Numbered from the stretch's first letter, positions 1,679 through 28,954 are shown. The stretch is DNA of 32,000 bases from Acidothermus cellulolyticus 11B (GCF_000015025.1 NC_008578.1:780001-812000); one strand, 5' to 3'. Notes: generated from the letters alone by a model not told the origin. Made by a program: numbers and translations.

Positions 1679-3189
1679 CCGTCCGAGTCCGGGTGGCGCC
1701 GTCGCCGACCGGCGACCCGCACGTCGGGACGGCGTACATGTCGCTGTTCAACCTGGCCTTCGCGCGCCGGCACGGCGGCGCGTTCGTGCTGCGGATCGAG
1801 GACACCGACCGGTCGCGGTACGTCGCCGACAGTGAGCAGCAGATTTTCGACTCCCTCCGGTGGCTTGGCCTGGACTGGGATGAGGGTCCCGACAAGGGCG
1901 GGCCGTACGGTCCGTACCGGCAGTCGGAGCGGCTGGACACCTACCGCCCGTACGTCGACCAGCTCCTCGCTTCCGGGCACGCGTACTACTGCTGGTGTTC
2001 GCCGGAGCGGTTGGCGGCGATGCGCGAGGAGCAGCAACGCCGCCGGCAGCCGCCGGGGTATGACCGGCTCTGCTACGGCAAGACCCGCGAGGAGCGGGCC
2101 CGGCTCGGCGGGTTCAGCGAGCGGCCCGTGGTGCGGATGCTCATTCCGGACGACGTCCCCCTCACCTTTCCCGATCTGATCCGCGGCCAGGTGTCGGCGC
2201 CGCGTCCCGACGATCAGGTGATCCTGAAGGCGGACGGCTTTCCCACCTACCATTTCGCCGTCGTCGTGGACGACCACTTGATGGCGATCACCCACGTGGT
2301 GCGCGGCGAAGAATGGATCAGCTCGACGCCGAAACACCTTCTGCTGTATGACTGGCTCGGCTGGCCCCGGCCGCAGTTTGCGCACATGCCGTTGCTCCGC
2401 AACCCCGACAAGTCGAAAATCTCCAAGCGGAAGAATCCGGCTGCGCGGTTGCTGTGGTTCAAGGAACAGGGGTATCTGCCGGAGGCGTTGCGGAATTTCC
2501 TTGCGCTCATGGGATATTCGATGCCCGACGGCCGGGAGGTTTTCTCCTTCGACGAGATGGTCGCGGAATTCGACTGGTCCCGGGTGAATCCGGTCGGTCC
2601 CGTGTTTGACGTCACGAAATTGGATTGGCTGAACGGGCATTACATCCGGTCGCTCCCGGTCGACGACCTTGCGGAGCGGTTGATCCCGTATTTGCAGGAG
2701 GCCCGGCTCATCGGCACCCCGGTGACCCCGCGGGAGGACGCCCTGCTGCGGGCGGCGGCCCCCCTGGTGCAGGAACGGATCGCACACCTCACCGAGGCGG
2801 CGGAGCTTCTCGCCTTCCTCCTACGCCCCGAGGAGGAGTTCGGCATCGAACCGGACGCCGCGCAGCGGGTGCTCGGCCGTGATGCCGCGGCGTCGCTCCG
2901 GGCCGCAATCGACGCGCTTGAGCCGCTGGCTGACTGGACGGCGTCCGCGATCCATGCCGCGCTGCAGGCCGCTCTGGTCGACGGGTTGGGCCTCAAGCCC
3001 CGGCATGCTTTCACGCCGGTTCGGGTTGCGATCACCGGCCGGACGGTGTCGCCGCCGCTGTTCGAGTCGATGGAACTTCTGGGCAGGGACCGCAGTCTGG
3101 CCCGCCTGCGGCGCGCCGCGGCGATCGCCGATGCGGGTGGGGCTGATTCCGCGGGTGTCGGCCCGGGCAGCGCGGTGCGCACCGACTGA
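1675..3189 (+). CDS. gltX: glutamate--tRNA ligase
   Basis: Class I aaRS signatures: HIGH-type APSPTGDPHVGTA near the N-terminus and KMSKS-type KISKRK. Full-length 504 aa. The GTG start is coupled to the upstream gene and the gene is followed by tRNA-Gln and tRNA-Glu. Confidence 0.95.
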   Translation: MTVRVRVAPSPTGDPHVGTAYMSLFNLAFARRHGGAFVLRIEDTDRSRYVADSEQQIFDSLRWLGLDWDEGPDKGGPYGPYRQSERLDTYRPYVDQLLASGHAYYCWCSPERLAAMREEQQRRRQPPGYDRLCYGKTREERARLGGFSERPVVRMLIPDDVPLTFPDLIRGQVSAPRPDDQVILKADGFPTYHFAVVVDDHLMAITHVVRGEEWISSTPKHLLLYDWLGWPRPQFAHMPLLRNPDKSKISKRKNPAARLLWFKEQGYLPEALRNFLALMGYSMPDGREVFSFDEMVAEFDWSRVNPVGPVFDVTKLDWLNGHYIRSLPVDDLAERLIPYLQEARLIGTPVTPREDALLRAAAPLVQERIAHLTEAAELLAFLLRPEEEFGIEPDAAQRVLGRDAAASLRAAIDALEPLADWTASAIHAALQAALVDGLGLKPRHAFTPVRVAITGRTVSPPLFESMELLGRDRSLARLRRAAAIADAGGADSAGVGPGSAVRTD

Positions 3190-3341: not shown

Positions 3342-3416
3342 TGGGGTATGGGGTAATTGGCAGCCCGGCGGATTCTGGCTCCGCTAGTCTAGGTTCGAGT
3401 CCTGGTACCCCAGCCA
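3342..3416 (+). tRNA. tRNA-Gln (anticodon CTG), CCA encoded
   Basis: Hand-folded cloverleaf. Acceptor TGGGGTA/TACCCCA, D stem GGGT/GCCC, anticodon stem GCGGA/TCCGC with loop TTCTGGC, T arm CTAGG-TTCGAGT-CCTGG, discriminator G plus CCA. Confidence 0.9.
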
Positions 3417-3483: not shown

Positions 3484-3559
3484 GGCCCCGTAGTCTAGCG
3501 GCCTAGGACGCCGCCCTCTCAAGGCGGTAGCGCCGGTTCGAATCCGGTCGGGGCTACCA
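3484..3559 (+). tRNA. tRNA-Glu (anticodon CTC), CCA encoded
   Basis: Hand-folded. Acceptor GGCCCCG/CGGGGCT (one G-U pair), anticodon stem CCGCC/GGCGG with loop CTCTCAA, T loop TTCGAAT, discriminator A plus CCA. Confidence 0.9.
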
Positions 3560-16349: not shown

Positions 16350-18404
16350 TTATCGGTGGCCCATGCCTGCGACGGCGGCGAGCAACGCGATGAGAGCGGC
16401 AAGCATGTACGCGAGGTAGGCCTCGAGCCGGCCCGATTGCAGCCGTTTCACCCCAGCCACGACCCGGCGCGTCCACCGGATCAACGGCCGGTAGAGGAAG
16501 GCGCCGACCGCTTCGACGACGTCGCTGGTGTATCCAAGCTGGACGTCGCCCACTCCCCGCTGTCCCGACCCGGCCCGGCCGCCGGTCGCCGCTTCCAGCG
16601 CCCGCAGCTCCGTGCGCGTGAGCAGCAACCCGGCAAGCAGTTTCCGTGTCGGGTTGGTGTACCCGAACGCCGTGTACCGGTCATGGCCGGCCACCCCGCC
16701 GGTCGCCGATCGCCATGCCGGTACTCGGCGGACTCGAAGCATGGCCAGCCGGGATCCCGTCAAACCGATTCCGGCGGCCAGCGCGAGGAACCCGGGAAGA
16801 ACGATCCACAGCCAGCTCGGGGAGAGGATCGAAAAGTCGGCGAAGACCGGCTGCAGCACCCATGGTCCGTTGAGCGCTTGCGTCACCAGGTCACGCCCGA
16901 CGAGCGGATCCAGTCCGGCCGCGATGAAGCGGATCACCTCGGGCGCTATGGCGGCCGTCGCGAGGCAGACCAGGCTGAGTATTGCGACGGCTGATCCGCC
17001 AAGCCAGCCGAGATCACCGCGTTCTCTATTGGTTGCGGCTTGGCCGTTGCGCTTGCCCAGGACGACGAATCCGAAGAGCCGGACGAACGTCACGCCGGCA
17101 AAGCCGGTGGTCAGCGCAACGAGAGCACCCGCGACCGCCATCGCCACCTTGACGGCCAGGCCGGTGAGCCGGAACTGCTGCATGAGCGCCTCGAGGAGGA
17201 ACCATTCGGAGACGAAGCCTGCGGTCAGCGGCAATCCCGCCAATGTGATCGAACCGATCGCGAGTCCCGCGCCGGAGGCCGGCAGTCGCCGTCCGATGCC
17301 GACCAGCTCGTCGAGGTCGTCGCTTCCGACGTGCCGCTCAGGACCGGCCGCCGATACGAAGAGCAGCGCCTTCGCCGCGGCGTGAGCGATGACCTGCAGC
17401 GTCGCGGCAAGCAACCCAACGGCGACCAGCCGGGGTTGGCCGACGTACCAACCGGCCAGCGCCACCCCGTAACCGGCGAGAATCAGCCCGGCATTCTCCA
17501 CGCTGGAGTAAGCAATTACGCGCATCAGGTGCGTCTGAACCGCGGCATGCGCGATGCCCAGGATCGCGGTGATGCCGGCGACCACCAGGACGGCAACCAC
17601 CAGCCAGACGGGTGGGCGTCCGAGCAGCGCCGCCGTCCGGTACAGACCGTAGAAGCCCACGTTGACGGCCGCGCCGGCAAGCAGCGCGCGGACCGGGCCG
17701 ACCGCCGCGGCGTAGGTGGGCGGCACCCACACGTGAAACGGCAGCAGCCCAACCTTGCTCGCGAACCCGGCGACGAGCAGGGCGTACGCGATGTCGTGCC
17801 GCGGGCCGAGGTGGACGGCGAGGTCGGCGAACCGCCAGCCGCCGGGACCCTGTTGCGGCGCGGCCAGCAGCAGGAATCCCACCAGGAGCAGGCCACCGCC
17901 GATCTTCCCGAAGGAGAACGCGGTCATCGCCGCCCGACCGCCGCCGGAGCGCTGCGGCGCACCCGCGAGCAGGTAGAAGGCCAGCGACAGCAGCTCCCAC
18001 CCGCCGACGAGGACGAAGACGTCGTCCGCTGCTATGACCAGTGCGGCGGCGGCCAGGAGGAGCGCGATGCCTCCGCCGATTCCGTGGCGGCGGAGCCCGC
18101 GTCTCGCCCACTCGGCGACCGCCAGCAGGACAGGGACGGCGACGCCGAAGCAGATCACCAGGAAGAGGCCGGCGAGGTGGTCGACCCGCAACCCGCCGAC
18201 GGGCAGCGCGAGAAGGCGGTGGAGGTCGGCGGTCATCTGACGGCCGGTCATCGCGCGGGCCCCGAGAACGACGAAGAGCGCGGATCCGGCGGCCGCGAGA
18301 AGCGGGCCGCCCATCCGCGCCGGACCGACCCGGATCGGTACGACGAGATCCCAGACGATTGCCCCGGCCAAGCAGGCAAATCCAGCGATCAGCAGTTCGA
18401 TCAT
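16350..18404 (-). CDS. HyfB/NuoL-like antiporter-type membrane subunit (proton-conducting membrane transporter family)
   Basis: The start is set at ATG 18404, which forms an ATGA overlap with the upstream stop (MIELLIAGFACLAG...). The Arg-rich 130 codons upstream look non-coding. Family hallmarks: GGWELLSLAFYLL, SKVGLLPFHVWVP and HAAAKALLF. 684 aa. Confidence 0.85.
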   Translation of the reverse strand: MIELLIAGFACLAGAIVWDLVVPIRVGPARMGGPLLAAAGSALFVVLGARAMTGRQMTADLHRLLALPVGGLRVDHLAGLFLVICFGVAVPVLLAVAEWARRGLRRHGIGGGIALLLAAAALVIAADDVFVLVGGWELLSLAFYLLAGAPQRSGGGRAAMTAFSFGKIGGGLLLVGFLLLAAPQQGPGGWRFADLAVHLGPRHDIAYALLVAGFASKVGLLPFHVWVPPTYAAAVGPVRALLAGAAVNVGFYGLYRTAALLGRPPVWLVVAVLVVAGITAILGIAHAAVQTHLMRVIAYSSVENAGLILAGYGVALAGWYVGQPRLVAVGLLAATLQVIAHAAAKALLFVSAAGPERHVGSDDLDELVGIGRRLPASGAGLAIGSITLAGLPLTAGFVSEWFLLEALMQQFRLTGLAVKVAMAVAGALVALTTGFAGVTFVRLFGFVVLGKRNGQAATNRERGDLGWLGGSAVAILSLVCLATAAIAPEVIRFIAAGLDPLVGRDLVTQALNGPWVLQPVFADFSILSPSWLWIVLPGFLALAAGIGLTGSRLAMLRVRRVPAWRSATGGVAGHDRYTAFGYTNPTRKLLAGLLLTRTELRALEAATGGRAGSGQRGVGDVQLGYTSDVVEAVGAFLYRPLIRWTRRVVAGVKRLQSGRLEAYLAYMLAALIALLAAVAGMGHR

Positions 18405-19210
18405 TGCAACCGTCCCATGGCCAGGAGAAGCGCGTGCAACAGGGCGAACGGCGTAGGCGGCGAGCCGGGCACCCAGATGTCGACCCGTACGGGATCGCCG
18501 TCCGCGGCACCCGTGGCACCCGCCGAGTCCGGGGTCGCCGCGATGAGGTCGCCGATTCCCCCGCTGGTCGCGTACGTCGGATGGACCAACCCGCCGCTGA
18601 TCGCATCGGTGCCCGCTGCGATGACGACCAACGGCCGCGGCGCGGCCTGGAGAGTTCGGGCCAGCGGCGCGGCCATTCCCCGCGACCCGACGCCGGTGAC
18701 CAGCAGGACGTCGGCGTGCCGGGGGGATGCGGTAAAGAAAATCCCGAGCCGGTGGATGTCGTACACCGGATTGAGCAGGGCAAGGACCTCCCACTCATCG
18801 GCGCCGTCGGAACCGGCGTCCACGTGCCGGACATGGATGGATCGGCGCAGCAGCCGGGTCCGGCGGGCCAGCTCGGCGCGGACCGCAGCGAGGGCGTCGT
18901 CCGTTTCCGGGAGTGCGGGGACGACGAGGAGGTCCCGGTGCGCCGCCGGCGCAGGAATGGTGAACCGGAACCGCTCCGGATACTGCCGCACGCAGCGGTG
19001 ACAGAGAATGCACCGACCCTGATCGACGTGGAGCCGGTCTCCGTCCCGGCTGATGGCGCCGGTTGGGCAGACCGCGGGGATTTCCGCCGGAACCGCCTCA
19101 CCGGGTCGGTCGATGGGCGTGACCGCACCAGGGAACGTGTCGCGGTACGAGTCAGGGTGGGCCGGCCAGCGGCTGGTGACGCGGCGGCGACCACGGGTGA
19201 ACCACGGCAT
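18401..19210 (-). CDS. fusion of a ferredoxin-like (HycF/NuoI-type) N-terminal domain with a NuoB/HycG-like small-subunit domain; the NuoB-like domain contains no cysteine
   Basis: NuoB/HycG-type body: SPRHADVLLVTG, VIAAGTDAISGG and VDIWVPGSPPTP. The N-terminal part has VCPTGAI and CILCHRCVRQYP. These four are the only Cys in the 269-aa protein. The ATG overlaps the TAA of the large-subunit gene (TAATG). Confidence 0.8.
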   Translation of the reverse strand: MPWFTRGRRRVTSRWPAHPDSYRDTFPGAVTPIDRPGEAVPAEIPAVCPTGAISRDGDRLHVDQGRCILCHRCVRQYPERFRFTIPAPAAHRDLLVVPALPETDDALAAVRAELARRTRLLRRSIHVRHVDAGSDGADEWEVLALLNPVYDIHRLGIFFTASPRHADVLLVTGVGSRGMAAPLARTLQAAPRPLVVIAAGTDAISGGLVHPTYATSGGIGDLIAATPDSAGATGAADGDPVRVDIWVPGSPPTPFALLHALLLAMGRLQ

Positions 19211-20709
19211 TACAGCGCCACCCCCGCGATGGAGAGCCCGAAACTGGCTTCGATGAAGGGAAAATCCGTGAGGATATCGCCGGCGAAAACGTCGTGGAAG
19301 AGCACGAGGTTATGGAAGGACGCCGACCGCGGCGCACATCGGGAAATCCGCCCGTCGTCGCACTCCACGACATAAACGACCTCGCCCTGCGGCGCTTCCG
19401 CCCAACCGATGCCGCGGCCGCTGATCCGGTCGATGGCGGCAGGCACGTCGGCCGGCTCGGCGGTCGGAGCCGACAATGCCGCGATGTGTGCGACGGCCTG
19501 CCGGATGAGCTCCGCCGAACTGCGGATTTCCGACCACCGGATTTCCAGCCGTGCCAACGCATCGCCGGATCCGGAGGACACCGCCGGAAACTGCGGCAGA
19601 TCGGAGTACTCGTCGTACGGCCGATGCCAACGGTCGTCGTCGTCGAAACCTGACGCCCGCCCGATCGGTCCGAGGGCGCCGTGCCGGCGGGCGAGTGCCG
19701 GGTCGAGTGGTCCGGTGCCGCGGAGCCGGTCGAGGAAAGACGGCGTCTGCATGAGCAAGTCGGCGTCCGCGAAGACCTCACGGAGAATGTCGTCCAGCCT
19801 GGTGAGCAGTGCGTTCGGGGAAATCGCTGGTTCGCAACCGATACCGCCGGGTACGACGACACCGCGGCCGAAGCGGCTGCCGCACGCGGCGCCGATAAGC
19901 CGCAGAATGCGCTCCTTGTGGTAGCCGAATCGGGACACGGCAACGGCCAGCCCGGCGGCGTCGGCGAGTTTCAGCGCGACGTCGAGGTGGTTGGCGATGC
20001 GTTCGAGTTCCGCGAAAATAACCCGCACCGACCGGTCCCGCGGTGACGGGATGACACCGGCGAGGTCTTCCACCGCATGGCAGAAGGCGAGCGCGTGCGC
20101 CACCGAGGCGATTCCCTCGACCCGTTCCGCCAGCAATACGCCGTCGGAGACGTCGAGGTCCTCGAAGCGCCGCTCGATGCCGCGATGCTTGGCGAAGACG
20201 CGGATGCCGACGTACGGAATGTCCTCTCCCGGGGTTTCGACGAGATACTCCACGGATTCATAGACACCGGAGCGGACGGGTCCGTGCGGAATGGTGAAGA
20301 CGCCATGGCCGAGGACCCGCGACGGGATGGCCGCTTCGTCCGGGGTGAGCGGCGGTATCGCCGAGCGCTGTCCGGGCAGCGGACGCGGTTGTGCCTCACG
20401 GAGCGGAAGAATCAGCGGGTCGAGCCGCGGATGCCCGAGCGGTTCGAGGCCGAAGAGGTCGTGGATTTTCCGCTCATACCAACTGGCGGCCGGCACCACG
20501 GCGGAGAGCGCCGGGTAGCTGGTTGATCCGCGCGGAACCGCGACGTCGATGGCGTCGATGCTGCCGGCGCTGGCCAGAAGCGCCGTCAGCCGGAGGTCGG
20601 ACTCCGGGGGAGCGGTGGCGAACAGGCTGGCGAATCGGTTCGAGGCGAGCCGGTCGAGGATGTTCGTCCGCCAGACGGCGATATCTGCGGTCAGCGGGGT
20701 CAGCGTCAT
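19210..20709 (-). CDS. fused NuoC-NuoD / HycE-like large subunit lacking the NiFe-binding cysteine motifs
   Basis: NuoC-like WYERKIHDLFGLEPLGHP, then the NuoD/large-subunit core: HGPVRSGVYESVEYLVETPGEDI and FAKHRGIERRFE. The start is set at ATG 20709 (TGATG overlap with the upstream stop). 499 aa. Confidence 0.85.
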   Translation of the reverse strand: MTLTPLTADIAVWRTNILDRLASNRFASLFATAPPESDLRLTALLASAGSIDAIDVAVPRGSTSYPALSAVVPAASWYERKIHDLFGLEPLGHPRLDPLILPLREAQPRPLPGQRSAIPPLTPDEAAIPSRVLGHGVFTIPHGPVRSGVYESVEYLVETPGEDIPYVGIRVFAKHRGIERRFEDLDVSDGVLLAERVEGIASVAHALAFCHAVEDLAGVIPSPRDRSVRVIFAELERIANHLDVALKLADAAGLAVAVSRFGYHKERILRLIGAACGSRFGRGVVVPGGIGCEPAISPNALLTRLDDILREVFADADLLMQTPSFLDRLRGTGPLDPALARRHGALGPIGRASGFDDDDRWHRPYDEYSDLPQFPAVSSGSGDALARLEIRWSEIRSSAELIRQAVAHIAALSAPTAEPADVPAAIDRISGRGIGWAEAPQGEVVYVVECDDGRISRCAPRSASFHNLVLFHDVFAGDILTDFPFIEASFGLSIAGVAL

Positions 20710-22247
20710 CAGCCACCTCCGAGTTCTACGGCGCCGCGGGTGAGCAGGTCGATGAGGGACGCCGGAGGGTGCATCCCGAGCAGCACGAGAACAGCCAGTC
20801 CGAGCACCGGCGGGATCACGAGCCACGCGCTGAATTCGCGGCCCAGCCGGGGGGTCGGCCGATCCGGCGTCTTGGCGATGCTCTCGTCCGACGTCCGGCC
20901 GTCCGCCGCGTTGGATGACAATGAAGCGGACGCCGTGGTGATTCCGGCTTCGTCGGCGGGGAAAACCAGGGCGGTGGTCGTCCAGGTGAGACCGGCGAAG
21001 GCGAGGATGACGAGAGCGACGAGCACCGCGACGGTGCCGCTGTGGCCGGCGGCGAGTCCACCGGCGACGATATAGAACTCACTGCGGAAGATTCCAAACG
21101 GCGGCGCGGCGGCAAGGGCGAGTATCGCCAACAGGAAAAGCGGCGCGGACCAGGGGAGTACGGTGAAGCCGCGACGCATGGCGGTGAGATCCTTCGTTCC
21201 GAACGCGCGGACGAAAACCCCCGCCCCCATGAACGCGTTTCCCTTCGCTGCAGCGTGTGCGAGGACGTGCAGCAGAACGCCGACGACGGCAATGCGGGCG
21301 CCGAAACTCATGCCGACGGCAAGAATTCCCATGTGCTCAATGCTGGAATAGGCAAGCAAGCGTTTGATATCCCGTTGGTCGAGCAGGTACAGCGCCGCGA
21401 GGGCGAGCGACGCGATGCCGAAGGCGAGCAGGACCTGGCGGGGAAAAGCAGCGCCGAGGGTTGCGACGGCGACTTGGTAAAAACGGAGGATCGCGTAAAA
21501 GCTTACTGCGAGAAGCGAGCCGGAGAGCAGGGCCGAGACGGGTGTCGGCGCTTCGGAATGTGCATCGGGCAGCCAGGTGTGCACCGGAAAGAAGCCGACT
21601 TTCGTCCCGAAACCAAGGACGGCAAGGACGAATCCAAGCCGGACGGCCGTGTGCGGAAGTCCTGCGGAGTGCATGGTGAGGGCGTCGAAGGTGAAGGTGT
21701 AGGACGTGCCAAGCACCTGTGAGCCGGCGTAGTAGTAGAAAACCGTTCCGAAGAGGGCAAGGCCGAGACCGGCTGACGCGATGAGAACGTATTTCCAGGC
21801 GGCTTCCGTTGCGGCGTCGGTGTCGTCGATGGCGACCAGGAGCGCAGAAATGACCGTAGTGAGCTCGACCGCGACCCAAAGGAGGGTGAATCCGTTGACC
21901 ATCGGCGCCGCCAGCAAGGCCCACGCGAAGAGGTTGATGCCGGCGAGGATGCGCCGGCAGTATCGACGGTCGACGTGCTCGGGCCGTAGATAGCCGATGG
22001 CGTAAAGCGCAACGGTGGCATACACAAGCGCGGTGGCAAGGAGAAAAATCGTGGAAACCGCGTCGACCCGGAGAAAACCGGCGGCGACGCTATGGGCACG
22101 CGTCGCGGTAACCAGCGCCAGGACCGCGCCGAAGGAGCCAACGCCGACACCCGCGGTGAGGATCCGGCCCGCTGTTGGGGGAGCGATGAGGCAGACACCG
22201 GCGGCGACGAACGGTACGACAAGGAGTGCAACAAGAAGTGTGCTCAC
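20709..22247 (-). CDS. HyfF/HyfD/NuoN-like antiporter-type membrane subunit
   Basis: Hallmarks WVAVELTTV, TKVGFFPVHTWLPDAHSEAPTPVSALLSG and HAAAKGNAF. The start is set at GTG 22247 (VSTLLVALLVVPF...), 4 nt after the upstream stop and preceded by GGGGGTGAG. Confidence 0.85.
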   Translation of the reverse strand: MSTLLVALLVVPFVAAGVCLIAPPTAGRILTAGVGVGSFGAVLALVTATRAHSVAAGFLRVDAVSTIFLLATALVYATVALYAIGYLRPEHVDRRYCRRILAGINLFAWALLAAPMVNGFTLLWVAVELTTVISALLVAIDDTDAATEAAWKYVLIASAGLGLALFGTVFYYYAGSQVLGTSYTFTFDALTMHSAGLPHTAVRLGFVLAVLGFGTKVGFFPVHTWLPDAHSEAPTPVSALLSGSLLAVSFYAILRFYQVAVATLGAAFPRQVLLAFGIASLALAALYLLDQRDIKRLLAYSSIEHMGILAVGMSFGARIAVVGVLLHVLAHAAAKGNAFMGAGVFVRAFGTKDLTAMRRGFTVLPWSAPLFLLAILALAAAPPFGIFRSEFYIVAGGLAAGHSGTVAVLVALVILAFAGLTWTTTALVFPADEAGITTASASLSSNAADGRTSDESIAKTPDRPTPRLGREFSAWLVIPPVLGLAVLVLLGMHPPASLIDLLTRGAVELGGG

Positions 22248-22251
22248 GATC

Positions 22252-22926
22252 TCACCCCCGCAATCCACTGAGTTTCCGGGTGGAGAGCGACTGCCGGCGA
22301 TTGTGATGAATGCGGATGAGGGCGCTGAACACCACAACGGCGACGAGCAGGTCGAAGAGCAGGACGACTTCAAGCAGGAACGGCATCGTCGCGGCGATGA
22401 CCAGGCTCGCCAGTGAGACAGCGTTCTCCATCGAGAAGAAACCGACCGCCTGCGACACGACGTCCCGACGGAAAATCATGAGGATGAAGGCGACCAATAC
22501 CGCCGCGACGGCCAGCGAGAGCGCGGTTCGCGGAAGAACGGCCGCGCGAATCGGCAAGCCGGCGGTGGCGAAGAAGCCGAATGCCGTCGCCAGGAGTGCG
22601 CACAGCGTCCGCGTCGCAACACCCAGGACGCCGCTGCCGGCGATGTCCGTACCGGTGTCGCGGAGCATGCGGCGCAGAACGGCAGGAACCGCGAGCACCT
22701 TCAACACCGCGGACAGTACGGCGAGGGCATAAAGGTCGGGTACGTTGCGTTGCTGCGCCGCAATGGCCGCGAGGACCGCGAGCAGCAGCGACTGCCCGGC
22801 GTACAAGCGGATCTGGGCCGGCAGGAGGGCGGCGCGGAGCATGCCGAACTCGGCGAGGAGAACGAGGACGGCGATGACGTCGGCGACGCCGTCAAAGACC
22901 GGCGGCGCCGGTGTTCCGGTCGGCAT
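22252..22926 (-). CDS. HyfE-like small polytopic membrane subunit (NuoK-related)
   Basis: 224 aa. The start is set at ATG 22926. Multiple hydrophobic helices. FFSMENAVSLASLV resembles the HyfE conserved segment. Size and position match hyfE / mycobacterial hycP-type genes (from memory). Confidence 0.7.
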   Translation of the reverse strand: MPTGTPAPPVFDGVADVIAVLVLLAEFGMLRAALLPAQIRLYAGQSLLLAVLAAIAAQQRNVPDLYALAVLSAVLKVLAVPAVLRRMLRDTGTDIAGSGVLGVATRTLCALLATAFGFFATAGLPIRAAVLPRTALSLAVAAVLVAFILMIFRRDVVSQAVGFFSMENAVSLASLVIAATMPFLLEVVLLFDLLVAVVVFSALIRIHHNRRQSLSTRKLSGLRG

Positions 22927-22963: not shown

Positions 22964-23926
22964 TCATCCGCCTCCCAGGTAGACGGTGAAAACGGCCAGT
23001 ACAGCGAGAAGAAACGCGGCGGCGACAAATTCGCTGATTTTGAAGAGGCGGAGCTTGGCGAACGAATCGTCGATGACCGCCACACCGACGCCGACGAGGG
23101 CGGCCTTTCCGAGGAGGGCGAGGACGGCGAGAATGACGGCGGCGAGTGAGCCGTCGGAGGCCAGACCCCACGGTGCGACAAAGACATTGAGGAAGATGAT
23201 GTACAGGATGAATTGTTTCATCGCCGCGCCCCACCGGAGCATGGCCAGGTAGGGCCCGGAGTGCTCGAAACTCCGCGCCTCTTCGATCATCCCGAATTCG
23301 TTCGTGCCGCTGTGCGTCTCGATCGGGATGCGGCCGGTCTCGTAGAGGATCACCAGGAAGAACGCGGCAGCGGCCAGCAGGTGCGCCGGGCGCACGATCT
23401 GACCCGCGCTCTGCCGCACGGTGGCCGCCAGCGCATACGGCAGGTCGGTGCTGGTGAGCAGTGCGACGGTGAAGACGACGAACAAGACGACCGGTTCCGT
23501 TATGGCGCCGAAGGTCTTCGACCGGCTCGATCCGAGCTGGGCGTATGGCGAGCCCGTCTCGGCGGCGGCAAGGGCCACCGCGAAACTGGCCAGCGCCAGG
23601 AGGAAGCCGCCGCCGAGAATGTCGCCCATGTAGCCGAGCGGCAGGCCGTAACTGGTGAGGACGGGAATGAGCAGCGGGATGGTGAGATAGCACACGAAAG
23701 CGACGAACGGTGCGGCAAGGAAAATCCAGCTCGCCTCCAGCGGTGCGAGTGACTCCTTGCGGAAGAATTTCACGATGTCGTAGTAGGGCTGGAGAATCCG
23801 TGGACCGCGCCGTCCTTGCAGCCGGGCCTCGAGACGCGCGATGAACCCGGAGAGGCCGGGCGCGGCCAGGGCCACCGTCCCGACCTGGAGAACCTGGAGG
23901 AGAACGGGGGAGAGCCGTGGATTCAT
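22964..23926 (-). CDS. HycD/HyfC/NuoH-like membrane subunit
   Basis: RLQGRRGPRILQPYYDIVKFFRKE and YETGRIPIETHSGTNEFGMIEE are NuoH/HycD-type motifs. 320 aa. First long gene of the operon. Confidence 0.85.
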   Translation of the reverse strand: MNPRLSPVLLQVLQVGTVALAAPGLSGFIARLEARLQGRRGPRILQPYYDIVKFFRKESLAPLEASWIFLAAPFVAFVCYLTIPLLIPVLTSYGLPLGYMGDILGGGFLLALASFAVALAAAETGSPYAQLGSSRSKTFGAITEPVVLFVVFTVALLTSTDLPYALAATVRQSAGQIVRPAHLLAAAAFFLVILYETGRIPIETHSGTNEFGMIEEARSFEHSGPYLAMLRWGAAMKQFILYIIFLNVFVAPWGLASDGSLAAVILAVLALLGKAALVGVGVAVIDDSFAKLRLFKISEFVAAAFLLAVLAVFTVYLGGG

Positions 23927-24265: not shown

Positions 24266-24748
24266 GTGTCAGACGATGCAGATCAGTCAGCTGCAGGCTC
24301 GCCGGAGAGCGTTGCCGGTTCCGTCGTGTTTCTGGCGGATGTGCGGCTGCTGCGCGCCTTGAGCACTATTCTCCGGACGGCGGTCGATCTGCAGCGGGAC
24401 GCAGCGCGGGTGATTGATGCCTGCTTGGAGCCGGGAGGCAAGACGGCCGACCTTGCGCGGCTGGGCGGCCGCGTCACCAGCGGCTATTTCCGCCTCCGCG
24501 AGCAGTTGCGCAGCATGCCGGACCACCCTTTGGTCCGGGAGGTGGATGCGTTGGTGAATTACCATCAGCAGATCGTCGAGCAGGCGATGCTCTTCGGATA
24601 TCGCGGGTTCGACGCCGGTCGGGAGAAGGTGCTCCGCGGCTGGTCCGACCGGTTGGGCGCGCCGGCGCAGCGGCTGCGCGATGTGTACGTCGAGGTGCAG
24701 CGGCGGCTCGCCAATCGGGAATACCAGGACGGCGAACGCCCGGGGTAG
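24266..24748 (+). CDS. hypothetical protein (predicted all-helical, no family recognised)
   Basis: 160-aa ORF with GC3-biased codons, starting at GTG 24266. A hairpin plus T6 tract lies downstream. Confidence 0.5.
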   Translation: MSDDADQSAAGSPESVAGSVVFLADVRLLRALSTILRTAVDLQRDAARVIDACLEPGGKTADLARLGGRVTSGYFRLREQLRSMPDHPLVREVDALVNYHQQIVEQAMLFGYRGFDAGREKVLRGWSDRLGAPAQRLRDVYVEVQRRLANREYQDGERPG

Positions 24749-24882: not shown

Positions 24883-25686
24883 TCACCGCGTGGTCATGCC
24901 GCGGCACAGCTCGATTGCGAGGACCCGGTCCAGATAGGCAAAGGTTTCGAACTTCGCGCCGTCGGGGAGCCGAGGGTCCGCGGCGGCGGCCCGGAGCAGA
25001 TCGACTACCCGCGGCAGGTCCAGATCGTCCTCGAGTGCTTGCCGCGCCGCCTGGACATACTCGGCTGGCACCGGTGCGGACGGGCAGTCTGCCCAGGCCG
25101 CGACGGCGCTTCGCCACGCGGTGAGATCGGCCTGCGCCGCCGCCAGGTGCGAGTGGTCAAGGAGGACCGGCCGCGCATAGTGGCGGGCCGACAGCGCCAG
25201 GCGTTGCGCGAGGGGATCGGCGTCGCGCGGGAAGTTCCGCCAGGCGCCGGCGACCGCGACCGTTGGGACGTCGGCGCCGGGTGTCAGTGCATCCGCCGGT
25301 ACGACGCGCAAGTGAGGGCGACCGAGCAGGACGTCGGCGCCGGGTGTCAGTGCATCCGCCGGTACGACGCGCAAGTGAGGGCGACCGAGCAGGACGTCGG
25401 CGGCCTCGGTGTCGGTCTCGACGACGTCGTGCGGAGGTGCGATGCCGAAGTCGTTGCACACGACGTTCAGCCAGGAGCGCGTGTGCGTCGGGGAAACCAC
25501 GGCCGTTAGGACCTGAATCCCGGAGAGCTCACGGATTCGCCGGAGACTATCACCGACCAGCAGGACGCGGACGCCGGTGAGGTCGGCGGCGCTGTGCGGC
25601 TCGGGCGGCGTGACGACCATGCGGAGCACCGCACTCCCGCCGACGGCGACGAGCCGCCGGGTCACGGCGTCCCGGAGCTGGAGCAC
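24883..25686 (-). CDS. truncated MshC / cysteinyl-tRNA-synthetase-like protein, predicted catalytically inactive
   Basis: The N-terminus aligns by eye with the class I Rossmann start of MshC/CysRS, but the HIGH position reads DLTG. The C-terminus (DPLAQRLALSARHY ... LTAWRSAV ... ALEDDLDLP) resembles the MshC/CysRS helical domain. There is no KMSKS. It is 267 aa versus more than 400 aa for the enzymes. GTG start. Confidence 0.55.
   Translation of the reverse strand: MLQLRDAVTRRLVAVGGSAVLRMVVTPPEPHSAADLTGVRVLLVGDSLRRIRELSGIQVLTAVVSPTHTRSWLNVVCNDFGIAPPHDVVETDTEAADVLLGRPHLRVVPADALTPGADVLLGRPHLRVVPADALTPGADVPTVAVAGAWRNFPRDADPLAQRLALSARHYARPVLLDHSHLAAAQADLTAWRSAVAAWADCPSAPVPAEYVQAARQALEDDLDLPRVVDLLRAAAADPRLPDGAKFETFAYLDRVLAIELCRGMTTR
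25266..25402. repeat. perfect 63-bp tandem duplication (2.2 copies) inside the MshC-like CDS
   Basis: 25266-25328 equals 25329-25391, and the match continues to 25402. The duplication is in frame and doubles the 21-aa peptide ADVLLGRPHLRVVPADALTPG. Confidence 0.95.
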
Positions 25687-25916
25687 GGTCCCACGGTAGC
25701 GAGACCGGCACGTGCCGGAATCTTTCGCTTAGGACCGATCCCCGCGGTCGTTGCGCCGGGACCGGTCCCGGCGCCGTCTTCGCTCAGGACCGATCCGTCC
25801 GTCGTCTCTGTGTCAGGGCCGATCGAGCCGCCGCGGGTAGACTGAACGCGGCGATGAAGCCCGCCGACAATGCGCCGCCCGGCTGATGGCTTCTACCGAG
25901 TTCGGTGGAGGTCGTC

Positions 25917-27467
25917 ATGACGGTGCTCAAGGAGCGGGCCGCAAAACCGAGTGTTCTCTTCGTCGACCCGACGGCGTTGGCGGCGGTCGACGAGCAGCCC
26001 GAGTTCTTCAAGGACCTCCATCTCGACGAGATCCTGGACGTGATTCTCGCTGGATACGAAGAATATGGGCTGCGGCCGTTGTTCTACCAACCGTTAGGTG
26101 ACGTCGACGCCGTCCGGTATCGGCACGAGGTCTTCCGGGATCTTCAGGATGCGGGCATCCGCGAAGCGGTTGACGCGTTCACCGCTGCTCTGCGCGACAT
26201 GCGCAACGCCTTCGCGATGAGCGAAAAACTCTCTTACCCGCAGCAGAAACAACGGTGGTTCCTCGACGCTGCTTTGATCTACTGTAACGCCGTTGCCTCA
26301 TTGGCGCGTCGATTCTCCCGGATGCCTCTCGGCTCACGAGGACTTCAGGCACTTGCCGATTACCTTCAGGGTTACGTCGCATCGCCGGCGTTTACCCGTC
26401 TTGCCCGCGACGCCCGGTCCGTGAGCGATGCGCTGGCCGGCGTTCGGTATGCGGTGCATATCAAGGGGAGCCAGGTGCGCGTGCAGCGCTATGCCGGGGA
26501 GCCGGAGTACAGCGCCGAGGTGACCGAGACGTTCGCCCGATTCCAGCAGCGGACCGGCGCCGATTATCGGGTCACCTTCAGCGAATCCGCATACATGGAT
26601 CACGTCGAGGCGCGCATCGCGGATCTCGTGGCTGCGCTGTACCCGGCTGAGTTCACCGCCCTTGTGACGTTCACCGAGGTGCACGCGGATTTCCTGGATC
26701 CGGTGGTGGCGGCCTTTGACCGCGACATTCACTTTTACCTGGCGTATCTGCGGCATGTGGAGCGGCTAACGCGCGGGGGACTGCCGTTCTGCTATCCAGA
26801 ACTGTCGACGACGTCGAAGGAAACCGTGGTCCGCGGCGGTTACGATCTCGCTCTTGCCATGACGCGTGACGGAGAGCCCGGCGCCATCGTGGGCAACGAT
26901 TTCTCGCTTGACGGCGGGGAGCGCGTCATCGTGGTGACCGGACCCAACAGCGGAGGGAAGACGACGTTCGCCCGCATGTTCGGACAGGTGCACTACCTTG
27001 CGAGTCTCGGTCTGCCGGTGCCGGCGCGCGCGGCTCGGCTGTTCCTTCCCGATCGGGTCTTTACGCACTTCGAACGGGAGGAGCAACTTGCGACTCTGCG
27101 CGGCAAGCTGGACGACGAACTTGTCCGGCTGCGGGACATCCTGGCGCATGCCACCGCCAGGAGCGTCATCGTGATGAATGAGAGCTTCTCTTCGACGGCG
27201 TTGCGGGATGCGCGTTACCTCGGCGCCGAAATTCTGCGCCGTGTCCTCGGGCTGGACGCCATCGGCGTTTACGTGACCTTCGTCGACGAGCTTGCCTCGA
27301 TCGACGGGAGGATCGTGAGCATGGTCGGGATCGTCGATCCCCGCGACCCGGCCCGGCGAACGTACCGGTTCGAGCGCCGTCCCGCAGACGGCCGGGCGTA
27401 CGCCCTCGCTGTTGCGGCGAAATACGGTCTGACATACGAGCAGCTTCGCCGGCGGGTGGCGTCGTGA
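25917..27467 (+). CDS. MutS-family ATPase (core plus ABC ATPase domains only), paralogue A
   Basis: Walker A VVTGPNSGGKTTFARM followed by the MutS-like LASLGLPVPA. Walker B region VIVMNESFSST. ATG 25917 lies 5 nt after GGAGG (25907-25911). The ORF is open from GTG 25905. Confidence 0.8.
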   Translation: MTVLKERAAKPSVLFVDPTALAAVDEQPEFFKDLHLDEILDVILAGYEEYGLRPLFYQPLGDVDAVRYRHEVFRDLQDAGIREAVDAFTAALRDMRNAFAMSEKLSYPQQKQRWFLDAALIYCNAVASLARRFSRMPLGSRGLQALADYLQGYVASPAFTRLARDARSVSDALAGVRYAVHIKGSQVRVQRYAGEPEYSAEVTETFARFQQRTGADYRVTFSESAYMDHVEARIADLVAALYPAEFTALVTFTEVHADFLDPVVAAFDRDIHFYLAYLRHVERLTRGGLPFCYPELSTTSKETVVRGGYDLALAMTRDGEPGAIVGNDFSLDGGERVIVVTGPNSGGKTTFARMFGQVHYLASLGLPVPARAARLFLPDRVFTHFEREEQLATLRGKLDDELVRLRDILAHATARSVIVMNESFSSTALRDARYLGAEILRRVLGLDAIGVYVTFVDELASIDGRIVSMVGIVDPRDPARRTYRFERRPADGRAYALAVAAKYGLTYEQLRRRVAS

Positions 27468-28954
27468 AAGTCTTTCTCATGCACCCGGAGCAGGATTTCG
27501 ATCCGCAGGCTCAGTTGCCGGAGCATGCCGACGACCTGATCCGTGACCTGGAACTGGAGACCCTCCTGGCGGCTATGGCGGGCGGTGACGATTATCTGCT
27601 GACTGTCGCCCGCGCGGGTGTCCTGCATCCTCTCGCCGATCCCGCCGTGATCCGCTATCGTCAGGAAATTCTCGCCGACTGCCTGCGCCATCCCGACGCC
27701 CTCCGGGCCTTGTATCACCTTGCCGCCGAGGCCGTCGCCGCGGAAAAGAAGATCTGGCGGACCTTCTGGAAGTCGCCGGACATCATCCTGCATCGAGCCC
27801 TCGAGGTGATGGGTGTTTTCCTCGGCTATATTCGGCGGTTGCGCACACTCACCGATACGTACGCCGAGATGTTCTCCGCCCCGGGTCTTCAGCGGTTCAT
27901 GCGTATGGTCGGCGAGGAACTCTCCGACGAGTACCTCCAGCGGGTCGAGAATCATCTGGCGGAGCTCTCTTTCCGGCGCGGCGTCCTGCTCAGCGCCCGT
28001 CTCGGCCGGGGAAATAAAGGGGAGGACTACACGCTGCATCGGTACACGGAGCGCAGCCTTCTGCAGAGGATTGCTTCGGGCGAGCGCCGCGCTGCGGGTT
28101 ACACCTTCCGCATTCCGGACCGCGACGAAGCGGGTCATCGGGCGCTGTCGGAATTGCGCGGCCGGGGACTGAACGTGGTTGCGGACGCGCTTGCCCGGTC
28201 CGCCGACCATGTGCTCTCGTTCTTTGCGGCTCTCCGCGCCGAGCTGGGTTTTTACCTCGGCTGCGTGCAATTGGCGGAACGGCTTGCGTCGCTCGGCTGC
28301 CGGTGGTCGTTTCCCGATGTGCACCAGCCGTCGGCCCGCCGTTTCCACGCGCGACATCTGTACGACGTCTGCCTCGCCTTGACGATCGGCGGGCCGGTGG
28401 TCGGCAATGACGTCGACGCGGACGGGAAACTTCTCGTTCTGGTGACGGGACCCAATCAGGGCGGGAAGTCGACGTTCCTGCGCAGTGTCGGACTGGCCCA
28501 GTTGCTCATGCAGGCTGGGATGTTCGTTCCCGCCGACGCGCTGGACGCGAGCGTCGCCGGGGGAATTTTCACGCATTTCAAACGCGAGGAGGATCCGGCT
28601 CTGCGTGGCGGAAAGCTCGAGGAGGAGCTCGCCAGGATGAGTGCGATCGCCGACCGCGTGCACACCGGCTCGGTCGTCTTGTGCAATGAGTCGTTCAGTG
28701 CCACCAATGAACGCGAAGGGTCGGAGATCGCCCAACAGGTCATCGATGCATTCATGGACTGCGGCGTCCGCGTCTTCTTCGTGACGCATTTGTACGACCT
28801 GGCGCGCCGGTACAGCGAGCGGCAGGACCGGCGGGTGCTGTTCTTGCGGGCGGAGCGACTGCCCGACGGACGGCGCACCTTCCGGATGATCGTCGGTGCA
28901 CCGGAGCCGACGAGTCACGCGGCGGACTCCTACCGCCGGATTTTCGGCCTCTGA
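27464..28954 (+). CDS. MutS-family ATPase (core plus ABC ATPase domains only), paralogue B
   Basis: Walker A LVTGPNQGGKSTFLRS followed by LMQAGMFVPA. Walker B region VVLCNESFSATNEREG. The GTG start overlaps the stop of paralogue A (GTGA). An alternative ATG lies at 27479. Confidence 0.8.
   Translation: MKVFLMHPEQDFDPQAQLPEHADDLIRDLELETLLAAMAGGDDYLLTVARAGVLHPLADPAVIRYRQEILADCLRHPDALRALYHLAAEAVAAEKKIWRTFWKSPDIILHRALEVMGVFLGYIRRLRTLTDTYAEMFSAPGLQRFMRMVGEELSDEYLQRVENHLAELSFRRGVLLSARLGRGNKGEDYTLHRYTERSLLQRIASGERRAAGYTFRIPDRDEAGHRALSELRGRGLNVVADALARSADHVLSFFAALRAELGFYLGCVQLAERLASLGCRWSFPDVHQPSARRFHARHLYDVCLALTIGGPVVGNDVDADGKLLVLVTGPNQGGKSTFLRSVGLAQLLMQAGMFVPADALDASVAGGIFTHFKREEDPALRGGKLEEELARMSAIADRVHTGSVVLCNESFSATNEREGSEIAQQVIDAFMDCGVRVFFVTHLYDLARRYSERQDRRVLFLRAERLPDGRRTFRMIVGAPEPTSHAADSYRRIFGL

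Follow-up and report, generated by a model that had tools for sequence, protein, structure and literature searches.

The gene read on the minus strand from position 20709 to 19210 is, judged by its sequence, the large subunit of an Ehr-type actinobacterial membrane complex, and this complex is almost certainly not a hydrogenase. [quoted passage not shown] In the present case, the large subunit is homologous to those of group-4 hydrogenases and misses the NiFe-ligating residues, and NuoB-like, NuoH-like and Mrp/antiporter-like subunits are encoded together with it. It seems probable that the complex derives from a Hyf/Hyc-like group-4 [NiFe]-hydrogenase and would most likely act as an ion translocator, with a cytoplasmic cap without hydrogenase or quinone redox chemistry. 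The gene is one of six translationally coupled, Hyf-like genes present in the window, i.e. the whole stretch of 32,000 nucleotides of Acidothermus cellulolyticus 11B that was analyzed. In the order of reading, they are:

22964–23926, minus strand: NuoH/HycD-like membrane subunit of 320 aa, with which the operon begins (Pfam PF00146, E=2e-32; top PDB match HycD 7z0s_D, E=3.5e-37).
22252–22926, minus strand: HyfE-like small membrane subunit, 224 aa, with the start taken at ATG 22926 (NCBIfam 'hydrogenase 4 membrane subunit' at E=3.5e-20, short of the curated cutoff).
20709–22247, minus strand: HyfF/NuoN-like antiporter-type subunit, about 512 aa, with an uncertain start at GTG 22247 or 22268 (Pfam PF00361, E=1e-48).
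19210–20709, minus strand: large subunit, the gene under study (Pfam PF00329 and PF00346; PF00374 below threshold).
18401–19210, minus strand: small subunit, 269 aa, with half a ferredoxin domain at the N-terminus and a NuoB/HycG-like domain fused to it (Pfam PF01058 and weak Fer4 matches).
16350–18404, minus strand: HyfB/NuoL-like antiporter-type subunit of 684 aa, with which the operon ends (Pfam PF00361; HycC 7z0s_C, E=1e-34).

The ORFs overlap at junctions of the forms TGATG, TAATG and ATGA. The ATG of the large subunit, at 20709, forms a TGATG junction with the stop of the gene upstream, its own stop codon occupies 19210–19212, and the product has 499 amino acids; the plus-strand reading of 19210–20709 was discarded, its frame being full of stops. 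The start of the HyfB-like gene (ATG 18404) overlaps the stop of the small-subunit gene (ATGA), in agreement with the gene call of the related locus L081. The large subunit is a NuoC-NuoD fusion similar to HycE/HyfG. Its top PDB sequence matches were HycE, MbhL and Nqo4, with Escherichia coli HycE (7z0s_E) in the first place (HMMER E=5e-38; profile 1e-58), and HycE was also the top fold match (TM 0.74). Both its homology and its fold are thus those of group 4, including the NuoC-like fusion in the style of HycE. The two motifs HGPVRSG and KHRGIERRFE, cited for a conserved fold in the preliminary description, made from the sequence alone, are present. The AF2 models of the large and small subunits were of moderate quality (pLDDT 71 and 73), and in the former, both the C-terminus and the N-terminal sheet that forms the pocket had values below 50.

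Concerning the NiFe site, three stretches of the large subunit are relevant:

20089–20130, minus strand: former L1 NiFe motif, AERVEGIASVAHAL, with E198 and A201 replacing two Cys.
19213–19245, minus strand: former L2 NiFe motif and C-terminus, SFGLSIAGVAL, with S493 and G496 replacing two Cys.
19384–19398, minus strand: EAPQG, with Gln441 in place of the Arg of the hydrogenase motif EAPRG.

In the HMMER alignment, RVCGICGFAH of HycE lies over RVEGIASVAH, with the two Cys on E198 and A201 and the His on the retained H205, and RMCGICSFSH of Pyrococcus MbhL gave an identical alignment; none of the L1 Cys is conserved here. For L2, MAFFT placed the two Cys of 20 bona fide group-4 representatives (INKSFELCYxCxDR) over S493 and G496 of IEASFGLSIAGVAL, so that LCYxCxDR of these CCCC representatives corresponds to LSIAGVAL. 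The alignments coincide with what had been read from the single sequence, namely that both CxxC motifs are replaced, with the N-terminal spacing and the His kept, and with Ser and Gly at the C-terminal Cys positions. The same is true of the count of five Cys with no CxxC: the five residues (210, 276, 292, 450 and 458) occur in the contexts quoted at that time, and CxxC is absent from the protein and from all the 80 orthologues scanned. The lack of a C-terminal extension was confirmed as well. The protein does end 10 residues past the conserved Ser, but the nearest true hydrogenases likewise end at '...DR' without any extension, so its absence alone is no evidence of loss.

Chance can be excluded as the origin of the ligand replacements because they are conserved across 81 orthologues from different species genomes (E198 in 81/81, A201 in 78/81, S493 in 74/81 and G496 in 81/81). 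Among the nearest representatives at 50% identity, 97 of 122 were without Cys at the NiFe-ligand positions. Position 441 is Gln in 73/81 orthologues, and the Arg of EAPRG, which we take to be catalytic in hydrogenases, is present in 18/20 true hydrogenase representatives and in 63/76 of the other Cys-less ones. A functional hydrogenase, with NiFe or another metal held by unconventional Glu or Ser ligands, would be compatible with the HycE-like fold and with the preservation of E151, whose counterpart in HycE and MbhL is a conserved Glu, presumably involved in proton transfer in hydrogenases. The probability of this is nevertheless almost nil, as two of the four ligand positions are occupied by Ala and Gly, unable to bind metal, the Arg of EAPRG is replaced by Gln, the proximal cluster for electron delivery is absent (see below), the window contains no hyp or maturation genes, and HydDB treats Ehr as non-H2-metabolizing (PMC5037454). 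A true hydrogenase was ruled out by the Ala and Gly at ligand positions together with the missing proximal cluster.

The dN/dS ratio of the large subunit was 0.195 versus a 95%-identical relative and 0.14–0.30 in 18 independent orthologue pairs, which indicates purifying selection; the small subunit gave 0.156, and the operon genes compared to L081 gave 0.16–0.35. The gene order H-E-N-CD-B-L is kept in essentially all of 80 operon-spanning loci of Actinomycetota. Relatives were found in 391 species-level genomes, among them those of Streptomyces, Amycolatopsis, Nocardia, Micromonospora and Mycobacterium. The fixation of the ligand replacements and the low dN/dS values argue for a maintained protein and, with the synteny, agree with the earlier view of a group-4-type protein with a changed pocket and not a pseudogene. 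The opposite interpretation is that the gene, as a pseudogene or relic, is what remains of a decaying hydrogenase of the formate hydrogenlyase type that lost its function. It could be invoked that all the catalytic ligands are gone and that none of the six operon proteins reaches the cutoff of an NCBIfam model, but such decay is very improbable when the ORFs are intact and overlapping, dN/dS is low, the substituted residues are conserved in 81 orthologues, the six-gene order is so widely kept, and as many as 391 species genomes contain relatives. That the orthologues are recent copies of one mobile element is argued against by their 54–65% identity. The pseudogene reading was considered refuted by the selection and conservation data.

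The small subunit displays a second set of losses, at the following positions:

18788–18814, minus strand: GSDGADEWE, where the first two proximal-site Cys (GSCxxCExE) are replaced by D135 and D138.
18590–18613, minus strand: GTDAISGG, where the third proximal-site Cys (GACxxxGG) is replaced by D202 (D in 75/80).
18449–18469, minus strand: PGSPPTP, where the fourth proximal-site Cys (GCPP) is replaced by S250 (S in 71/80).
18992–19069, minus strand: C48-P ... C67xxC70xxC73, predicted to ligate a single [4Fe-4S] cluster; the ferredoxin domain has lost its other one.

The protein matched HycG (7z0s_G, E=7e-27), and the fold search led to HycG, MbhJ and NDUFS7. In the HMMER alignment to HycG and MbhJ, none of the four Cys of the proximal [4Fe-4S] site (cluster N2 in complex I) is kept. 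Their replacements are conserved in the 80 loci, with D135 in 78/80 and either D or E at position 138 in 80/80. The Cys of the half ferredoxin are nearly invariant (C48, C67 and C73 in 80/80, C70 in 79/80), and residues 30–88 were modeled by AF2 with pLDDT around 90. By comparison with the complete 2x[4Fe-4S] domain of the outgroup L082, the retained residues are motif-1 Cys IV and motif-2 Cys I–III, which we take to be the ligation of cluster N6b, adjoining N2, in Thermus Nqo9. In the three other Ehr-like clades sampled (L082, L083 and L086) all four proximal-cluster Cys are retained, and in L082 and L083 also the complete 2x[4Fe-4S] ferredoxin, whereas the window clade has conserved Asp/Asp/Asp/Ser at the proximal-cluster positions and has lost one ferredoxin cluster. 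In a literature search that excludes the founding paper on Ehr complexes (Marreiros et al. 2013, BBA 1827:198), no description was found of small subunits without cluster ligands or of this subgroup. The loss of the NiFe ligands is a known hallmark of Ehr, and the loss of the proximal cluster and of half of the ferredoxin is the new detail. The preliminary description was silent about the fact that the state it reported already has a name in the literature; as Ehr is defined by NiFe-ligand loss, its finding is real but less novel. It could be proposed, as a tentative idea that we do not regard as the likely outcome, that the window clade and the P0242 and P0270 lineages form a distinct, 'second-grade' Ehr, a machine of the complex I family having lost the NiFe site, the N2-equivalent cluster and one ferredoxin cluster. 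With an invariant Asp/Asp(Glu)/Asp/Ser set at the cluster ligands and an invariant Glu at the first NiFe Cys, its coupling site would have become carboxylate-lined, and it would either bind an ion or ligand without redox chemistry or hold a new kind of metal.

The His/Tyr quinone ligands of NuoD are not kept either. In an ungapped HMMER alignment (offset 112), Tyr87 of Thermus Nqo4 aligns with G199 (Gly in 80/81) and His38 with the variable position 150, which is Y here and M, F, L or V in orthologues. The position of the first Cys is acidic in complex I too, as Nqo4 D86 aligns with E198. The Q-module of complex I (NuoCD/Nqo4 and NuoB/Nqo6) has the same fold, an acidic residue at that position and no NiFe site, but it differs by its Tyr87/His38 quinone ligands and N2 ligands, missing here, and by its subunits, since the operon has six genes only and no separate NuoA, I, J, K, E, F or G genes. 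These differences ruled out the identification of the protein as a complex I NuoD.

The preceding data bear on whether the complex could still be a redox-driven pump, with electrons passing from the remaining [4Fe-4S] cluster through a mononuclear or unusual metal site without Cys ligands (D135, D/E138, D202 and S250) and reducing a substrate in the pocket of the large subunit, which is lined with carboxylates. The substrate might be menaquinone or some small molecule, and its reduction would drive ion translocation as in complex I or MBH. This is rather unlikely, even if several observations are in its favor. The retained Cys set resembles the presumed ligation of N6b, next to N2; the three acidic residues and the Ser are conserved far beyond the needs of a vacant site; nothing in the system is more conserved than the pocket loops and the NuoH-like subunit; and the full cluster chain of other Ehr-like clades suggests that the Ehr ancestors were redox enzymes. 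On the other hand, we know of no [4Fe-4S] cluster with three carboxylates and a Ser as ligands, the complex I quinone ligands and the Arg of EAPRG are lost, and no electron-donor module is encoded nearby. Moreover, from the geometry of complex I, the distance from the NuoI-like cluster to the pocket would exceed the electron-tunnelling range without the proximal cluster.

With respect to the membrane arm, the NuoH-like subunit is the most conserved one (44% of positions at least 95% identical in 69 orthologues), with E144, E196, E203, E210 and E221 invariant. Its pocket loop YETGRIPIETHSGTNEF is very strongly conserved, as is the pocket loop GPVRSGVxESxE of the large subunit. The HyfE-like subunit, without matches in the Pfam search, conserves the intramembrane residues E26, K76, E167, E186 and D192. 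In the HyfF-like subunit (NCBIfam hydrogenase 4 subunit F at E=3e-94, short of the cutoff; nothing at E≤1e-25 in the PDB search), the conserved residues are E170, K258, K377, H265, E346 and H347, the first three of which presumably occupy the canonical TM5, TM7 and TM12 positions. In the HyfB-like one (NCBIfam hydrogenase 4 subunit B at E=3e-99, short of the cutoff), they are E137, K217, H341 and K345. By eye, the Lys that we would expect after the HxWxP helix (TM8) appears as A or N in both antiporter-like subunits. The canonical Glu/Lys of the membrane arm are intact, and the charged residues are typical of proton/cation-translocating antiporter-like subunits.

Coming back to the preferred explanation, an ion-translocating complex derived from a group-4 hydrogenase, we infer the translocation from conserved residues only. 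The complex would be unable to make or oxidize H2, its electrons could not be expected to follow the usual cluster chain to the large-subunit pocket, and it lacks the complex I quinone ligands, which together point to a proton/cation-translocating machine as the most likely function. It seems reasonable to interpret that the cap, lined with conserved carboxylates, may be an ion-/ligand-binding or gating module and not a redox catalytic site, while the single remaining Fe-S cluster may be a redox sensor or a structural element. The strongly conserved pocket loops and the retained Fe-S site would fit some remaining pocket chemistry, and this counts against the explanation, as does the A or N that appears in place of the expected TM8 Lys.

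Among named systems, Ehr complexes such as that of Geobacter sulfurreducens (GSU0739-45) share the NuoB-like, NuoH-like and antiporter-like partners (PMC6349859, PMC10284858, PMC7894505). E. coli formate hydrogenlyase/hydrogenase-3 (7Z0S) provided the top sequence match for the large, small, NuoH-like and NuoL-like subunits and the top fold match for the large and small ones, and it has the NuoC-NuoD fusion in common with the operon; the HyfB-, HyfE- and HyfF-type membrane subunits of E. coli hydrogenase-4 were the top NCBIfam matches. Compared to E. coli Hyc/Hyf, there is here no NiFe site and no proximal cluster, the identity is about 25%, and both the HycB/HycF/FdhF partners and the HycI/Hyp genes are missing from the neighborhood. 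Of the traits of group 4 [NiFe]-hydrogenases, the L1 CxxC...H, the L2 CxxCxDR and the proximal-cluster Cys of the small subunit are all missing. Pyrococcus furiosus MBH (6CFW) and MBS/MBX (6U8Y) also have group-4-type modules coupled to Mrp-like subunits, and MBS/MBX is an example of a relative with altered chemistry. The Fe-S chain of three clusters is preserved in both, together with the NiFe site in MBH and with part of the Cys set in MbsL. The large subunit matched MbsL weakly (E=4e-12). Mrp antiporters have in common MrpA/MrpD-like subunits with conserved Glu and Lys and, if the preferred reading is correct, transport would likewise be independent of an internal electron-transfer chain. 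To our knowledge, Mrp is without NuoH-, NuoB- and NuoD-like subunits, which here are the most conserved parts of the system, and no operon protein matched MrpB, C, E, F or G in Pfam or NCBIfam.

Mycobacterium tuberculosis Rv0082–Rv0087 (hycD, hycP, hycQ and hycE) is likewise an actinobacterial hyc-like operon. The subunit sizes of that locus are similar, and its gene order is B-L-H-E-N-CD versus H-E-N-CD-B-L here. The search with the orthologue of Mycobacterium sp. M23085 matched M. kansasii (91%), M. malmoense and others, and no M. tuberculosis protein was among its best 120 matches, down to 60% identity; orthology with Rv0087 found no support in them. The M. tuberculosis hyc-like operon has been described as encoding an EHR complex that does not function as a hydrogenase (PMC6728331), and the actinobacterial hyc-like operon as horizontally transferred several times within Actinobacteria (PMC3087520).

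The current annotations are 'formate hydrogenlyase subunit 5', 'Ni,Fe-hydrogenase III large subunit' and 'NADH-quinone oxidoreductase subunit C/D'. As the sequence is incompatible with each of these activities, such genes should not be taken as a sign of H2 or formate metabolism in actinobacterial genomes and metagenomes. This matters for a common family under purifying selection, with relatives in so many species-level genomes. The most interesting point is that the proximal Fe-S cluster is lost as well and that conserved carboxylates have taken over its position. If this is confirmed structurally, the complex would be a cultivable, genetically tractable model of a complex-I-type coupling module without redox chemistry, with a bearing also on the M. 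tuberculosis hyc-like (EHR) locus. A 'second-grade' Ehr, if true, would be a natural experiment on the way in which the NuoH/B/D interface drives antiporter-like subunits without quinone or proton reduction.

Concerning the surroundings of the operon, genes for formate dehydrogenase, NuoEFG, hyp proteins or the endopeptidase were neither found in the 32-kb window nor recurrent beside the operon. Clustering of the flanking ORFs of the operon-spanning loci revealed as recurrent neighbors a USP-like gene (19 loci), a dynamin-like GTPase (17 loci) and MutS-domain-V proteins (23 loci). A protein identified by eye as DUF190-like lies beside the operon in 15 loci.

The large-subunit gene, which runs on the minus strand from an ATG at 20709 to a stop codon at 19210-19212 and encodes 499 aa, belongs to an operon of six Hyf-like genes, all of them on that strand, in a window with a G+C content of 63-70%:

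23926-22964, minus strand, NuoH/HycD-like subunit
22926-22252, minus strand, HyfE-like subunit
about 22247-20709, minus strand, HyfF/NuoN-like subunit
20709-19210, minus strand, large subunit (Complex1_30kDa and Complex1_49kDa)
19210-18401, minus strand, ferredoxin-NuoB-like small subunit
18404-16350, minus strand, HyfB/NuoL-like subunit

The plus-strand frame at the large-subunit coordinates is interrupted by stops. Overlaps join the large-subunit start to the stop of the preceding gene (TGATG), the large-subunit stop to the small-subunit start (TAATG), and the small-subunit gene to the last one (ATGA); identical boundaries were called in L081, a metagenomic relative with 95% identity. [quoted passage not shown] No NCBIfam model reached its curated cutoff for any of the six subunits.

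In Pfam, the large subunit matched NuoC (30 kDa) and NuoD (49 kDa), with NiFeSe_Hases only below threshold. Its closest solved relatives were E. coli HycE (7z0s_E, 5e-38; profile 1e-58), Pyrococcus MbhL (6cfw_L) and Thermus Nqo4, and its AlphaFold model (pLDDT 71) gave HycE as the top fold match (TM 0.74), followed by E. coli NuoCD. The preliminary description had claimed that both NiFe-binding CxxC motifs are replaced, and two alignments bear this out. With HMMER, HycE 'RVCGICGFAH' and MbhL 'RMCGICSFSH' aligned to 'RVEGIASVAH', which places E198 and A201 at the L1 Cys positions and keeps H205. With MAFFT, taking in the 150 nearest 50%-identity representatives, the four NiFe Cys of 20 true hydrogenases (pattern 'AERxCGxCxxSH ... 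INKSFELCYxCxDR') fell on E198, A201, S493 and G496. The five Cys of the protein (210, 276, 292, 450 and 458) form no CxxC, as had been noted, and CxxC occurred in 0/80 large-subunit orthologues. The C-terminal extension said to be missing is indeed absent, but this is not by itself diagnostic, because the 20 aligned true hydrogenases end at the same point. The Arg of the EAPRG motif, retained in 18/20 true hydrogenases and in 63 of the 76 other Cys-less representatives, is Gln441 in the E-first clade (Gln in 73/81 orthologues).

Concerning the small subunit, the HycG/MbhJ motifs 'GSCNGCxIE', 'GAC...GG' and 'GCPP' correspond in the HMMER alignment to 'GSDGADEWE', 'GTDAISGG' and 'GSPP'. The residues at the former proximal-cluster ligand positions were conserved among 80 loci: D135 in 78, D or E138 in all 80, D202 in 75 and S250 in 71. 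Thus, neither NiFe nor the proximal cluster can be bound through the canonical ligands, and a true hydrogenase was rejected, since the four NiFe Cys and the proximal-cluster Cys are all replaced. An 18-residue low-complexity insertion, ATPDSAGATGAADGDPVR (window 18485-18538, residues 225-242), directly precedes the strand bearing the fourth former ligand position. It was predicted with low AF2 confidence and was not found in 79 aligned GTDB orthologues; the very close relatives L081 and P0390 probably carry it too, because they have the same length (269 aa) at 98-99% identity.

The N-terminal 90 residues of the small subunit form a confidently predicted ferredoxin-like domain (pLDDT about 90) with the pattern C48-P...C67xxC70xxC73, in which C48, C67 and C73 were each present in 80/80 loci and C70 in 79/80. 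In an alignment with the outgroup locus L082, whose 2x[4Fe-4S] domain is complete, only Cys IV of motif 1 and Cys I-III of motif 2 are retained in the window protein. In ferredoxins of this type, such a combination generally ligates exactly one cluster. The retained set presumably equals the N6b-type ligation of Thermus Nqo9, whose cluster lies next to N2, and is taken as a lead only. This retained N2-adjacent position, together with pocket loops that are very highly conserved, would suit a complex that is still a redox pump, with a non-Cys-ligated cofactor at the carboxylate site, a reading that seems rather improbable. N2 itself, a complex I cluster, is missing in the window complex. The counterparts of the NuoD quinone ligands, which had been proposed for checking, are also missing, because in an ungapped alignment with Nqo4 (offset 112) Tyr87 corresponds to G199, His38 to position 150, which is variable, and D86 to E198. 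It seems reasonable to interpret that the complex carries out neither H2 metabolism nor complex-I-type quinone reduction.

In a scan of a genome collection, relatives turned up in 391 species-level genomes, the best 80 of which (54-65% identity) were fetched; they included Acidothermus, Nocardia, Sciscionella, Amycolatopsis, Micromonospora, Streptomyces, Actinocatenispora and Mycobacterium, and many Streptosporangiaceae MAGs. Among 81 sequences, E198 and G496 were invariant. A201 was present in 78, with Cys in the remaining three (loci L006, L007 and L011), and S493 in 74, with Cys in six (L033, L066, L077, L025, L007 and L038). The latter include the Mycobacterium orthologues, which with a few others read 'FGLCYAGVAM' in the C-terminal region and so keep one former NiFe Cys. 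In none of these loci was the CxxC pair restored. Against L081, dN/dS was 0.195 (large subunit) and 0.156 (small subunit); across 18 independent orthologue pairs it ranged over 0.14-0.30. The complex is thus under purifying selection, in agreement with the earlier view of a maintained protein, and a pseudogene was rejected on these values and on the conservation of the substituted residues. In a few MAG loci (L011 and L030, nanopore-derived) the HyfF-like and small-subunit matches were broken up, which looks like assembly frameshifts and not gene decay.

Searching 1.84 billion representatives with a profile yielded 7796 hits, of which 1030 had E<=1e-30. Among the top representatives with the four ligand columns aligned (n=122), 97 were Cys-less, 20 had all four Cys and 5 were partial, so that absence of the Cys is both widespread and diverse. 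The loci of six representatives were fetched, five with the small-subunit gene (L084, of P0250, stops at the large-subunit gene). All four small-subunit Cys are retained in L082, L083 and L086 (SESG, SSSG and EGTG at the four former NiFe-Cys positions), and L082 and L083 also retain two ferredoxin clusters; L087 (EMNG) and L085 (AATG) have a cluster-less small subunit and a half-ferredoxin, as in the window. These loci thus fall into two grades of loss, a first with the NiFe site gone and the Fe-S chain retained, and a second, including the window, in which the proximal cluster has disappeared too, along with one of the two ferredoxin clusters.

The window operon encodes an Ehr-type complex. 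Ehr complexes are related to group 4, lack Ni/Fe ligands and are of unknown function (PMC6349859, PMC10284858, PMC4758237); they were left out of HydDB as non-H2-metabolising (PMC5037454), and Ehr subunits were more abundant in formate-grown Geobacter (PMC7894505). Since Ehr is defined by the lack of those ligands, a large subunit without CxxC belongs to a known kind. The further loss of the proximal cluster, whose ligand positions carry conserved Asp/Asp/Asp/Ser, may represent an undescribed Ehr variant. The M. tuberculosis hyc-like locus, at most a possible orthologue of the window clade, has been viewed as an EHR complex rather than a working hydrogenase (PMC6728331), and several transfers of it among Actinobacteria have been reported (PMC3087520).

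The membrane arm appears functional, with its transmembrane charged residues intact. The HyfF-like subunit retains E170, K258, H265, E346/H347, H369, H373 and K377, and the HyfB-like one E137, K217, H341 and K345, in motif contexts that fit the Glu (TM5) and Lys (TM7, TM12) known in complex I and Mrp subunits. The HyfE-like subunit retains intramembrane E26, K76, E167, E186 and D192. Of all the subunits, the NuoH-like one is under the strongest constraint (44% of positions at least 95% identical), with invariant acidic residues in the loop YETGRIPIETHSGTNEF. Proton or cation translocation appears the most likely function, a reading held with some confidence, in which the cytoplasmic cap would have taken on a new role as a binding or gating module lined by carboxylates. 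The one Fe-S cluster left would then serve for sensing or as a structural element.

Outside the operon, the window holds ordinary chromosomal genes: leuA (3' end), FAA-hydrolase, gltX, two tRNAs, sugar ABC transporter, DeoR regulator, aldolase, FGGY kinase, ALO-type oxidase, MFS transporter, GT2 glycosyltransferase, two MutS-domain-V proteins, tig, clpP1 and clpP2. Genes for formate dehydrogenase, NuoEFG, hyp or endopeptidase were found neither within the window nor recurring beside the operon in other loci. A USP-like gene follows the last operon gene in 19 loci by eye (USP-CBS in L083, the only one with a recorded Pfam Usp hit), and a dynamin-like GTPase gene lies upstream of the operon in 17; both also adjoin more distant Ehr-like operons (examples, outside the window: L042 13347-13895; L083 11139-12971 and 815-2578; L086 1005-2717). 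Neither is in the window, where the GT2 glycosyltransferase and MFS transporter genes lie downstream of the operon instead. Other neighbours are:

3342-3416, plus strand, tRNA-Gln(CTG), directly 3' of the glutamyl-tRNA synthetase gene (1675-3189)
3484-3559, plus strand, tRNA-Glu(CTC), downstream of the same gene
24266-24748, plus strand, ORF between the operon and the MutS-like genes, coding-like GC3, no Pfam match
24883-25686, minus strand, hypothetical ORF just upstream of the operon, coding-like GC3, no Pfam match
25905-27467, plus strand, MutS-domain-V (ATPase) protein without other MutS domains
27464-28954, plus strand, a second such protein, its gene overlapping the first

The MutS-domain-V pair is divergent from the operon, and its homologues recur beside it in 23 fetched loci, which may reflect a functional link or merely a conserved neighbourhood near tig-clpP. 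Within the ORF at 24883-25686, a perfect 63-bp tandem duplication (25266-25402; 2.2 copies, 100% identity) doubles 21 aa of the encoded product as predicted, and a further, imperfect repeat of 27-28 bp occupies 25724-25807.
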